Assembly (NCBI RefSeq): GCF_003334385.1
Contig: NZ_QOWN01000079.1
Source: Escherichia coli
GTDB lineage: Bacteria; Pseudomonadota; Gammaproteobacteria; Enterobacterales; Enterobacteriaceae
Reading direction: 5' to 3' (one strand)
DNA length: 5,995 bases
Of the stretch, positions 1,100 to 4,712 are shown one piece after another. The position numbers and the translations under genes are program-made. Every line of letters begins with the position of its first letter. Within the stretch, counting starts at the first letter, position 1. The notes beneath the pieces were generated by a model. It had not been told where the DNA came from. It saw nothing but the letters and a program-made list of their open reading frames with translations, and ran no database searches.

Positions 1100-1126
1100 C
1101 CCTTTCATTTTCCTGAAAGGGTTTTG
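1100..1126 (+). terminator. rho-independent terminator of the colicin transcript, overlapping the 3' end of the convergent immunity gene
   Basis: Stem CCCTTTCA (1100-1107), loop TTTTCC (1108-1113), stem TGAAAGGG (1114-1121), then TTTT (1122-1125) on the plus strand, 13 nt after the colicin stop codon at 1085-1087. Confidence 0.5.
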
Positions 1127-1452
1127 CAGAATATAAATATTAAGTAAATGGCAACTACAGGAACTGATATAACGAAACAGAATAATTCAAATATTACAGT
1201 TAAGCTTCCGCCAACTGGATTAGTAAAGAAGTCTTTTTGCCAGACTTCTTTCCCTGTAAACCTTATTACCATTTTCTGTATTATCTTCATTGAAAAAGGA
1301 AAAGTAATGGAGCTGATAATGCATCCGATGAACGCATAAAACATTCTTGAATTTTCCTGGTTATCTTTCCATCCCAGATAAAAAACTGTAAGAATAATGA
1401 AACCTGGTATCAGGCTTTTCAGAAAATACTTTACAGATATATCCGCTTTCAT
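1105..1452 (-). CDS. pore-forming-colicin immunity protein (colicin Ia/Ib immunity type), 115 aa, integral membrane
   Basis: Intact 115-aa ORF, convergent with and immediately downstream of the colicin remnant, which is the canonical arrangement for pore-forming colicins. It is strongly hydrophobic with several predicted TM segments (GFIILTVFYLGW, FIGCIISSITFPF, SLTVIFELFCFVISVPVVAIYLIFIF). An AAGGAG ribosome-binding site sits 7 nt upstream of the ATG on the minus strand (plus 1460-1465). Confidence 0.65.
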   Translation of the reverse strand: MKADISVKYFLKSLIPGFIILTVFYLGWKDNQENSRMFYAFIGCIISSITFPFSMKIIQKMVIRFTGKEVWQKDFFTNPVGGSLTVIFELFCFVISVPVVAIYLIFIFCKTLSGK

Positions 1453-2904: not shown

Positions 2905-3222
2905 TTCATGTGTTTTTCTTGATTATAATATTAGTTGCTGGTTTTCCGCCGCGCAGATCCGGTTTCTGGTGGTCACGGATCTTCCTCTCCCCCACACAAC
3001 GCCACCTCCTATCAGCACAACATGTGGTATCTCATTCGGTTGCTTATGACACTATATGTTGTGTCATCTCCCTGACCTGTGATGCGCCGCGCAGGGGCGG
3101 AAAACAGCGATATGATTATTTTCTCAGCGTGGTACACTTCCGGAAAGTTGTGATATTCCGGAAAGTCGGATCTGACGGAAACGGCTCTCCGGTAATTTAA
3201 CGGCGTGGTTATATGGATGCTT

Positions 3223-3302
3223 GTTATCATGGTGATGATGATAACGGCATGATGTTATCAGACGGCGTGACGGTAAGGGCAGTGATGATGGATGACGTTA
3301 TC
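3223..3302. repeat. cluster of alternating GTTATC / GATAAC hexamers and GTGATGATG repeats upstream of the recombinase operon
   Basis: GTTATC at 3223-3228, GATAAC at 3240-3245, GTTATC at 3254-3259 and 3297-3302; GTGATGATG at 3232-3240 and 3282-3290. All lie 40-120 bp upstream of the ATG at 3343. Confidence 0.3.
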
Positions 3303-3342
3303 GCATGACCGTCCCTGCCCGGAAAAGAAAAAGGAGTCACCC

Positions 3343-3756
3343 ATGTTTTTTATTGAGAATGAAGGTCAGGCTGTCGCCGGAACGGATTACTGGCAGTCTG
3401 TACAGGCGCAGGCCGGATATGTCTACCTCAGCTGGAATGCCGGCGCAGCCAGGCTGCTTGTCCCGGATGCGGCAAAACATTTACTCAGGGAGATGCGGGG
3501 GGCTGAGTACGTCATCATCAGTAAGGGAACGCTGAATGGCCGCGATGCGCTGGAACTGGTATTTGAAGACGGCAGCGATGCGCCGTTTGTGATCCACATG
3601 CTGAGTGAGCAGTGCGATCGCCTGCTCCCCGAAAACAACCAGGGAGGGGGTTTTGTTGTCACCGTCTGGACGCGTGGCGGTAACCAGCGCCGTTATCCGG
3701 GAAAGTACCGTGTTGTGGAAAACCTGCCCGACGTTTCCCCGTGGAGTGAACACTGA
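3343..3756 (+). CDS. hypothetical protein (137 aa), translationally coupled to the downstream tyrosine recombinase
   Basis: ATG 3343 is preceded by AAGGAG (3331-3336) with a 6-nt spacer. Its stop TGA (3754-3756) is followed one nucleotide later by the recombinase ATG (TGAtATG). Sequence MFFIENEGQAVAGTDYWQSVQ...; no motif I recognise. Confidence 0.55.
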   Translation: MFFIENEGQAVAGTDYWQSVQAQAGYVYLSWNAGAARLLVPDAAKHLLREMRGAEYVIISKGTLNGRDALELVFEDGSDAPFVIHMLSEQCDRLLPENNQGGGFVVTVWTRGGNQRRYPGKYRVVENLPDVSPWSEH

Positions 3757-3757
3757 T

Positions 3758-4537
3758 ATGCAGCACCTGCCGGCACCGATCCACCATGCCCGGGATGCTG
3801 CTCAGCTTCCTGTTGCCATCGATTATCCGGCAGCGCTGGCACTCCGCCAGATGTCGATGGTTCATGATGAACTGCCAAAATACCTGCTGGCCCCTGAAGT
3901 GAGCGCCCTGCTCCATTACGTGCCGGATCTGCGCCGCAAAATGCTGCTGGCCACACTGTGGAACACCGGTGCGCGCATTAATGAAGCACTGGCGCTGACG
4001 CGGGGGGATTTTTCGCTCACGCCTCCGTATCCGTTTGTGCAGCTGGCCACTCTGAAGCAGCGGACAGAAAAAGCCGCCAGGACGGCAGGAAGGATGCCCG
4101 CCGGTCAGCAGACTCACCGTCTGGTTCCGCTCTCCGACGCCTGGTACGTCAGCCAGCTGCAGACGATGGTGGCCACACTGAAAATCCCCATGGAACGGCG
4201 TAATAAACGAACAGGCAGGACAGAGAAAGCGCGGATCTGGGAAGTGACGGACAGAACGGTCAGGACCTGGATTGGGGAGGCGGTTGCCGCCGCTGCCGCT
4301 GATGGTGTGACGTTCTCTGTCCCGGTCACGCCACATACGTTCCGCCATTCCTATGCGATGCATATGCTGTATGCCGGTATACCGCTGAAGGTCCTGCAGA
4401 GTCTGATGGGGCATAAGTCCATCAGCTCAACGGAGGTCTACACGAAGGTGTTTGCGCTGGATGTGGCTGCACGGCACCGGGTGCAGTTTTCGATGCCTGA
4501 GTCCGATGCGGTGTCTATGCTCAAAAGAATTCCATAA
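3758..4537 (+). CDS. tyrosine site-specific recombinase (plasmid multimer-resolution type, ResD/XerD-like), 259 aa
   Basis: Contains the tyrosine-recombinase signature residues: box I Arg (LWNTGARINEALAL), HTFRHSYA (H-x-x-R), and LMGHKSISSTEVYTKV with the catalytic Tyr. The track ORF 3605-4537 is trimmed to the ATG at 3758, which abuts the upstream stop. From memory it resembles the F-plasmid ResD protein. Confidence 0.85.
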   Translation: MQHLPAPIHHARDAAQLPVAIDYPAALALRQMSMVHDELPKYLLAPEVSALLHYVPDLRRKMLLATLWNTGARINEALALTRGDFSLTPPYPFVQLATLKQRTEKAARTAGRMPAGQQTHRLVPLSDAWYVSQLQTMVATLKIPMERRNKRTGRTEKARIWEVTDRTVRTWIGEAVAAAAADGVTFSVPVTPHTFRHSYAMHMLYAGIPLKVLQSLMGHKSISSTEVYTKVFALDVAARHRVQFSMPESDAVSMLKRIP

Positions 4538-4560
4538 GCTCTGACTTTTTTAAATCCCTT

Positions 4561-4712
4561 TCGGATATCTCATGGATATATTATCGGTATTTCATATTCT
4601 GTTGACATGCAGGACCGGTATAGAGTAAAAGAACATCTATTGAGTACCTCTTGGATATCCGAAAGGTGTCTTATGGGGTCTTTATGGGTATTACATGTGG
4701 ATTCTGGAGATA
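4561..4712. repeat. centromere/operator-like iteron cluster with promoter upstream of parA
   Basis: Repeated [C/T]GG[A/G]TAT motifs: cGGATATc 4562-4569, tGGATATa 4573-4580, cGGTATt 4585-4591, tGGATATCc 4652-4660 (palindromic GGATATCC), tGGGGTCt 4674-4681, tGGGTATt 4685-4692, tGGATTCt 4698-4705. A consensus -35 TTGACA sits at 4602-4607 but no clear -10 was found. Confidence 0.45.

Follow-up and report, generated by a model that had tools for sequence, protein, structure and literature searches.

Organization of the yedA-resD locus

The window analysed here, a 5,995-nucleotide stretch of Escherichia coli DNA (contig NZ_QOWN01000079.1 of assembly GCF_003334385.1), carries a small gene, yedA, immediately upstream of resD, the gene of a plasmid multimer resolvase. 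Comparison of the whole window with PLSDB by megablast gave matches to IncI1/I-gamma/K plasmids of E. coli, Salmonella and Shigella at ~97% identity, and the window is IncI1/I-gamma plasmid backbone. The open reading frame (ORF) of yedA and its translation give a protein of 137 amino acids encoded on the plus strand at 3343..3756, with the ATG at 3343 and the TGA at 3754-3756. ResD, a tyrosine recombinase of 259 amino acids identified by NCBIfam Xer-type and PHROG integrase matches, is encoded on the same strand at 3758..4537. Public annotation contains the same two ORFs under the names yedA (RefSeq WP_000465036.1, 'hypothetical protein') and resD. The 450-bp 'intergenic' stretch upstream of yedA contains the core of the rfsF site (2955..2982), a conserved non-coding block (2983..3215) and the yedA leader (3216..3342, plus strand), in which the similarity to F and IncR plasmids fades and which is particular to the yedA architecture. 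The gene adjoins the par/res maintenance genes of the plasmid and not the leading region.

The catalytic set of a tyrosine recombinase was found in ResD at R73, H193-x-x-R196, H219 and Y228. From residue 8 onward, the protein is 94-95% identical to the ResD proteins of F and IncFIA plasmids (94% for F). The DNA homology of resD across plasmid families starts near 3798-3809, ~40-50 nt inside the gene, and ends at the stop codon. With the recombinase and an rfsF site in cis upstream of it both present, the window appears to hold an F-type ResD/rfsF multimer-resolution module.

The yedA-resD junction (3743..3760, plus strand) is tight. The GGAG preceding resD (3743-3746) sits within the 3' end of yedA, 11 nt ahead of the resD ATG, and the yedA TGA (3754-3756) is separated from the ATG (3758-3760) by a single t (3757). 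This direct reading confirmed the TGAtATG arrangement noticed in the original prediction. The Shine-Dalgarno sequence of yedA itself, AAGGAG (3331-3336, plus strand), was read 6 nt before its ATG. Some databases use another ATG further upstream, at 3292, but the family alignments begin at 3343. The dN/dS of yedA is 0.09 against a 76%-identical copy from Cronobacter, with synonymous sites saturated against more distant copies, which indicates that yedA is a real gene under purifying selection. Since 1084 plasmid records of PLSDB contain yedA and resD side by side (at least 80% of the query covered) and yedA is under such selection, the tight junction is not a product of chance.

Pattern scans showed neither a terminator-like site between yedA and resD nor a sigma-70-like site on the plus strand inside yedA. 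No significant single-strand promoter or hairpin was detected upstream of YedA, in the window or in one leading-region locus, and a search of Rfam gave no match. RNA folding gave no significant structure masking the ribosome-binding site or start of resD (z = +0.67). Because no structure hides the resD start, coupling of the two genes, if any, would proceed through termination and reinitiation. The geometry suggests that yedA and resD are co-transcribed and translationally coupled, and the co-expression claimed earlier is backed by the 1-nt gap, the lack of a terminator and equally tight junctions in six further architectures.

Variants of the pair are found in databases. The 398-residue E. 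coli 'Tyrosine recombinase XerD' A0A6D1P2I1 (UniProt/AFDB) aligns to YedA over 136 columns with 75% identity and has about the combined length of YedA and ResD, which suggests that the two frames were fused by a one-base change at TGAtATG or by a sequencing error. In another locus (L016, 4460-5652), resD itself is broken by a frameshift. A subset of the I-complex plasmids encodes a YedA of 126 amino acids, 11 residues shorter and ~90% identical, followed by an intact resD (L017, 1828-2205; proteins P0004 and P0005).

The rfsF site and the conserved block

The motif AGATCCG-N14-CGGATCT at 2955..2982, ~390 bp upstream of yedA, is the presumed crossover site of ResD. In R64, its first A is nucleotide 43,620, the published start of the 'rfsF to yfcA' segment (PMC8004404). 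F has a single copy, at nt 45,922, which is the start given for the RepFIA block 'two rfsF sites, oriV-1, ccdAB, resD' (PMC4398462). Comparison of R64 with the window showed that the homology starts at the motif, where the sequence to the left and part of the spacer differ and the right side is common. Since the R64 coordinate, the F coordinate and the homology breakpoint agree, the motif is assigned as the rfsF core. The breakpoint pattern is that expected if the flanks had been exchanged at rfsF. Consistent with such an exchange, the window, which belongs to a 'Col'-type plasmid, lacks the left flank of rfsF that R64 and F have in common.

The R64 gene to the left of rfsF (locus L041, 1-867; protein WP_000698737.1, a P-loop NTPase) has the same protein accession as the F gene at 42445-44670 beside pifC and is taken to be pifA. 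A position of rfsF downstream of resD was also considered; alignment with the F and IncR versions gave no homology there, and the site is the upstream one.

The conserved non-coding block that follows rfsF (2983..3215, ~230 bp) is homologous to the rfsF/oriV1 region of F upstream of ccdA. It contains CACTTCCGGAAAGT and AAAGTCGGATC, together with two direct copies of TTCCGGAAAGT at 3138-3148 and 3156-3166. Positions 2954-3165 of the window are ~83-87% identical to the IncFIA segment 220-420 bp upstream of ccdA, and the IncR, Klebsiella, Enterobacter and Cronobacter versions retain shorter cores of the block. At 3016-3063 there is an imperfect inverted repeat, CACAACATGTGG.../...CTATATGTTGTG.

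A replaceable slot between rfsF and resD

Comparison of seven plasmid architectures showed that all of them keep rfsF and resD and differ in the genes between, which are ccdAB, yedA, a PDC-S67-like gene or mixtures of these. Each of the seven has GATCCG-N14-CGGATC ahead of its cargo genes and a resD start that falls within -11 to +3 nt of the last cargo stop codon. The variable stretch spans ~3216-3800 in the window, and the cargo covers ~0.6-3 kb across the architectures. The homology stops after the rfsF block and returns ~40-50 nt inside resD; thus, the unit consists of rfsF with its conserved block, variable cargo and then resD, and the slot in the middle is replaceable.

The IncI1 slot contains yedA alone. 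In F and IncFIA plasmids, the slot is filled by ccdAB and the ccdB stop abuts the resD start, so that the gene upstream of resD in F is indeed ccdB, as stated in the original prediction, and the neighbour in the window differs from it. The IncR slot contains orf116 and an unrelated 247-residue gene, which has a 4-nt overlap with the resD start. In a Klebsiella IncFIB plasmid, ccdA-ccdB is followed by a 227-residue S67-like gene, and an Enterobacter plasmid has four hypothetical genes in the slot, one of them S67-like. The slot of a Cronobacter plasmid carries orf120, orf242 (S67-like), the 76%-identical YedA and orf280, followed by an 88%-identical ResD. The slot gene of 220-250 amino acids matches PDC-S67, a PADLOC defence candidate, in IncR (L011, 1737-2480; E 3.6e-45) and Cronobacter (L044, 5258-5986; E 5e-34); its Klebsiella (L069, 1778-2461) and Enterobacter (L070, 1445-2110) versions share 44-50% identity with the IncR copy. 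A small pool of genes, comprising ccdAB, S67-like genes, YedA and small ORFs, seems to be shuffled in the slot.

The exact coincidence of yedA with the ccdAB position between rfsF and resD would fit a plasmid-stability function replacing ccdAB, in which a toxin-like or cell-division-delaying YedA couples growth to plasmid or dimer status. There are precedents for such an arrangement, as the ccd genes of F share an operon with the resolvase gene, and Tn3-family transposons carry toxin-antitoxin pairs between their res sites and resolvase genes (PMC7157771). However, the IncI yedA stands alone, with no small ORF as a partner, and no toxin-antitoxin pair with a recognisable family or fold was found in the IncI rfsF-resD slot. 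YedA is also found near the lytic modules of prophages and in leading regions, which are untypical places for addiction modules. Moreover, the IncI1 plasmid pESBL, as judged from the published accounts, appears to be without yedA-resD and yet is described as stably maintained (Table 2 of PMC4288162; PMC7602700). A role in place of ccdAB is therefore quite unlikely.

Independent distributions of YedA and ResD

YedA was detected by tblastn in 1159 plasmid records, nearly all of the I-complex, and ResD at 80-100% identity in at least 5000. Junction counts in PLSDB (at least 80% query coverage) gave 2393 records for ccdB-resD and 933 for the IncR 247-residue gene and resD. F has no YedA homologue by tblastn or the family hidden Markov model (HMM), although its ResD is 94% identical and its rfsF core is the same, and YedA is likewise missing from thousands of plasmids with the same core and a ResD of 90-95% identity. 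YedA is thus not present wherever the cognate recombinase and site are, and the distributions of the two proteins are independent.

The original prediction had offered two roles for the upstream protein, an accessory or regulatory factor for recombination and an unrelated hitch-hiker. As an accessory factor, YedA would affect directionality, architecture or expression for ResD and, more generally, for integrases. The coupled position directly upstream of resD in 1084 plasmids is in favour of such a factor, as is the Cronobacter operon, where YedA lies in the same rfsF-resD unit, not adjacent to resD. However, the co-occurrence check proposed with the prediction turned out against it, since most replicons that have a closely related recombinase lack YedA. 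ResD/rfsF recombination has been reported in F. Because F recombines through ResD and rfsF in the absence of YedA, YedA would be dispensable for resolution. The hitch-hiker proposal fits the data best, with the caveat that eight of 36 YedA lineages have a tyrosine recombinase within 2.5 kb, as described below.

The YedA protein and its family

YedA is a small acidic protein of 15 kDa (pI 5.1) with a single domain. Its predicted structure is beta-rich, with nine beta strands, two short helices and no helix-turn-helix. The search for remote homologues and structures proposed earlier uncovered a large family and no known relative. There are 275 relatives at E<=0.001 in a 90%-clustered database, and the family forms 944 clusters in a 50%-clustered database. 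The E. coli plasmid protein is ~60% identical to prophage proteins of Thiocystis and Thiodictyon (Chromatiales), Azoarcus and Rhodocyclaceae. Eleven positions are kept in at least 90% of the wide-family sequences, namely N6, G25, R37, L39, P41 (in all), G62, E71, D76, P81, R123 and P129.

Searches of YedA gave nothing in Pfam even at E<=10, no match in NCBIfam or PHROGs and no PADLOC family at E<=0.1. No match was found in the PDB by phmmer or with the family profile, and the modelled fold would be unlike any solved structure. No sequence or structural similarity was detected to the described anti-defence and establishment families ArdA, KlcA/ArdB, PsiB, Ocr and Acr. YedA also has no match to the Xis/recombination directionality factor (RDF) family and is not a small basic winged-helix or helix-turn-helix protein; its acidity and beta-rich model argue against an accessory recombination factor.

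One homologue of 70% identity, P0040, bears a precomputed PF19942 tag. In seven proteins (P0126, P0133, P0156, P0224, P0234, P0136 and P0204), the YedA domain is fused to other unannotated domains. The partners include an N-terminal 'FEHITLNTGH...WLGDFERC' segment, a C-terminal 'ELxxWxCYPxDGGHS...VPVPV' segment, 'SGDWGDL...' and, in one protein, DUF4262. None of these partner domains recurs beside YedA in the fetched loci, and the fusions may be gene-calling artefacts or real neighbours.

Genomic contexts of YedA relatives

Contexts were compared across 36 non-redundant YedA loci, with redundant fetches collapsed by eye. Neighbours were called from precomputed Pfam tags, a pooled Pfam scan and PHROG searches, and recombinases within 2.5 kb with a home-made tyrosine-recombinase HMM. 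On plasmids, the YedA homologue lies directly after ssb-psiB-psiA in L014 and near SSB in L005 and L043; in L068 it is co-directional with ArdK and DUF1456, ~6 kb from MobC/nikA. A Salmonella copy is 2.3 kb from an AcrVA2-like gene. In five prophage loci, a block of SNF2 helicase, PAPS-reductase/DUF3440 and ParB_N genes lies upstream of YedA, and other prophage copies adjoin tail or terminase genes. A leading or early location is thus seen for relatives (L014, L068 and the five prophages), whereas the gene in the window stands beside par/res maintenance genes.

The tyrosine recombinases found near YedA in eight of the 36 lineages are of two kinds. Only two lineages, the IncI and Cronobacter plasmids, have a ResD-type neighbour; the other six have a phage-type integrase. 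These integrases lie 268-963 nt upstream on the same strand in four cases, 2.2 kb upstream in one and convergently downstream in one. The two closest cases show the order contig end, int, YedA and then convergent late genes, which reads as an accessory zone beside the attachment site. By the author's rough estimate, integrase proximity is above that of uniform placement. Even so, order, orientation and recombinase type vary. A looser link of YedA to site-specific recombination modules, or to adjacent cargo hot spots, is real.

For the accessory recombination factor, the integrases provide the remaining support: a phage-type integrase lies within 2.5 kb in six of ~21 viral lineages, two of them directly upstream on the same strand at 268-286 nt, and five were observed within 1 kb, against ~1.3 of 21 expected for random placement in a 40-kb prophage (again a rough estimate by the author). 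However, 28 of the 36 lineages have no recombinase within 2.5 kb, and integrase-proximal zones are general cargo hot spots. The order and orientation of YedA relative to the recombinase are not conserved. In addition, a site-specific partner is expected to co-diverge with its recombinase, whereas YedA stays 45-60% identical beside recombinases (ResD and phage integrases of 330-430 amino acids) that share only the catalytic domain. Together with the lack of a Pfam match and the absence of YedA from F, these observations make an accessory recombination factor improbable.

Defence or exclusion against phages or competing plasmids is a further role that a cargo gene could have. The slot-mates of yedA elsewhere match PADLOC PDC-S67 and, weakly, HamC/DUF3223, and integrase-proximal zones of prophages often hold defence genes. 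The R64-type IncI region beside rfsF also bears the phage-inhibition genes ibfA and pifA (PMC8004404). However, YedA itself has no PADLOC match and is a small protein of one domain, which cannot be recognised as a nuclease, NTPase or sensor. A place behind ssb-psiB-psiA and close to ArdK, as seen for YedA, is more typically that of a counter-defence or establishment gene. A defence function is accordingly rather unlikely.

Proposed role of yedA in the resolvase operon

The favoured reading is that yedA is a cargo gene of an rfsF-cargo-resD operon, with a probability of roughly 0.6. That YedA is cargo and not a dedicated recombination factor is, taken alone, a likely conclusion. The more specific assignment of an establishment or counter-defence function is the most likely of the roles considered and yet tentative, as the case for it comes only from the contexts of the relatives and the nature of the slot-mates (ccdAB and the PDC-S67-like gene).

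In the proposed mechanism, yedA and resD would share one transcript, started at a promoter that lies within the rfsF block or immediately behind it. Ribosomes ending yedA would reinitiate at the resD ATG one nucleotide on, tying the output of resD to the expression of the cargo, in parallel with the ccd-resD operon of F. YedA would not be needed for ResD/rfsF recombination. It would instead be a self-contained protein of a large mobile-element family carried by plasmids and prophages, often placed in the leading region on plasmids (after ssb-psiB-psiA, or near ArdK and oriT) and in early regions or in the cargo zone beside the integrase in prophages. The target of the protein may be a conserved host or defence component, met on entry of the element or during its residence in the cell, and the IncI backbone may have captured yedA into the resolvase operon, where its expression would be constitutive.

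Several observations weigh against this reading. No consensus sigma-70 promoter was found by pattern scan in the yedA leader. In IncI plasmids, yedA and resD nearly always stay together (1084 of ~1130 records), and a functional link between YedA and ResD specific to the IncI lineage could exist. The recombinase neighbours in eight of the 36 lineages, and the four integrases upstream on the same strand, also count against it. Clustering of conserved neighbours showed no universal neighbour of YedA, and the contexts are heterogeneous. The 'entry' role is drawn only from relatives, as IncI plasmids carry the gene in their maintenance region. Anti-defence proteins usually evolve fast, whereas the YedA family is unusually conserved. 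Finally, no experiment or expression data on yedA were found in the literature, where 'yedA' is the name of another gene or serves as a map landmark; resD and yedA go unmentioned in the IncI transposon-insertion studies searched (one of them transposon-directed insertion-site sequencing, TraDIS).

Extended further, the cargo reading would make YedA the founder of a structurally novel class of mobile-element proteins that keep 45-60% identity between enterobacterial plasmids and the prophages of purple sulfur and other proteobacteria. Its members might act on a conserved host or defence target at establishment, or might be general helpers recruited by both rfsF/ResD and att/Int modules, and the rfsF-resD operon would be a slot in which conflict genes are shuffled. 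This extension is doubtful at present.

Other features of the window

In records with the ColIb-P9/R64 gene names, the order is a colicin gene with its immunity gene, ybaA, ydeA/ydfA (minus strand), yedA, resD, yefA and yegA. The yefA product is ParA-like, and parM/parR come next in the matching records, past the end of the window. The GC content is a mosaic: the flanks have 32-40%, yedA-resD has 56-62% and ydeA reaches 68%.

The colicin Ia/Ib gene is reduced to a remnant (667-1087), with pieces corresponding to residues ~385-415 and 547-627 of 627 and no intact ORF. The 115-residue immunity gene (1105-1452, minus strand) is whole and is thus an orphan. Bases 1-666 have no match to the usual IncI1 records; in the best-covering record, the features under the match include lasso-peptide biosynthesis, asparagine-synthase-related, ABC-transporter and IS3 transposase genes.

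On the minus strand, ydeA (1928-2518, 196 amino acids) overlaps ydfA (2518-2775) by one base. With 61-68% GC against 32-40% in the flanks, ydeA looks foreign in composition. Its matches are weak only, to phrog_19460 (E 8.5e-07) and to JetA/DUF5716 and VpaChn25_0724 (E near 0.005). Just upstream of ydfA-ydeA, a 23-nt repeat (TAAA[C/T]ATCATATCAGATATGATT) occurs at 2847-2869 and 2883-2905, and each copy holds the 17-nt palindrome ATCATATCAGATATGAT. The repeats are probably the operator of the divergent ydfA-ydeA operon.

The resD-yefA intergenic region contains a perfect 13-nt inverted repeat, CCTTTCGGATATC / GATATCCGAAAGG, at 4557-4569 and 4654-4666 with 84 nt between the arms, which may be a centromere or an operator of yefA-yegA (a small ParA and a 102-residue protein). 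In a transposon study of pESBL, a 100-residue 'Hp7' beside a ParA-like gene was given a score of 0.80 for 'essential for maintenance' (PMC4288162), and may be a yegA homologue.

Significance and comparison with known systems

The ORF and the name yedA, the ccd-resD operon of F and the exchange at rfsF in IncI plasmids are already public. The mapping of yedA to the ccdAB slot, the list of seven cargo architectures in which a coupled resD is the constant part, and the membership of YedA in a large unannotated mobile-element family without a structural relative are new. IncI, IncF and IncR plasmids are among the main carriers of extended-spectrum beta-lactamase (ESBL) and carbapenemase genes, and their multimer-resolution module holds a swappable accessory set that would be expressed with the resolvase. 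Such a slot accounts for the different neighbours of resD on its upstream side in the various plasmid families, and may be a recombination-prone place where addiction and candidate defence genes travel. It also means that adjacency and coupling to resD do not imply a role in recombination, a tempting inference that is dropped here. YedA occurs in over 1100 sequenced plasmids, belongs to a family of ~900 sequence clusters and yet has no annotation, domain or structural relative, and its size of 15 kDa makes it a tractable target in the search for new functions in plasmid or phage establishment. It would be of greater interest still if it were indeed a new establishment or anti-defence class.

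The closest known system is the rfsF-oriV1-ccdA-ccdB-resD module of F, which resembles the window in the rfsF core, the following block (~83-87% identical), a 94%-identical ResD and the terminal position of resD abutting the preceding stop codon. The two modules differ in the cargo, which is yedA and not ccdAB in the window, in the promoter/operator before ccdA, which is absent from the window, and in the first 7-16 residues of ResD. The toxin-antitoxin insertions of Tn3-family transposons are likewise accessory genes within a site-specific resolution module under common expression signals. However, they comprise a recognisable toxin-antitoxin pair with a serine resolvase or TnpI/TnpS-T on transposons, whereas the window combines a tyrosine resolvase, a plasmid backbone and a single gene.

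Excisionases and RDFs are comparable to YedA as small genes beside a tyrosine recombinase in some elements. In contrast to them, YedA is acidic and beta-rich without a winged helix, is conserved across unrelated recombinases and mostly lacks a recombinase neighbour. The leading-region establishment and anti-defence genes of conjugative plasmids (ssb, psiB, ardA/klcA and their neighbours) are comparable in that YedA homologues lie directly behind ssb-psiB-psiA (L014), close to SSB (L005 and L043) and close to ArdK and oriT (L068), and in that YedA, like their products, is a small cytoplasmic protein spread over unrelated plasmids and phages. However, YedA shows no likeness in sequence or fold to PsiB, ArdA, KlcA, Ocr or the solved anti-defence proteins, and the yedA gene of the window resides in the maintenance region.

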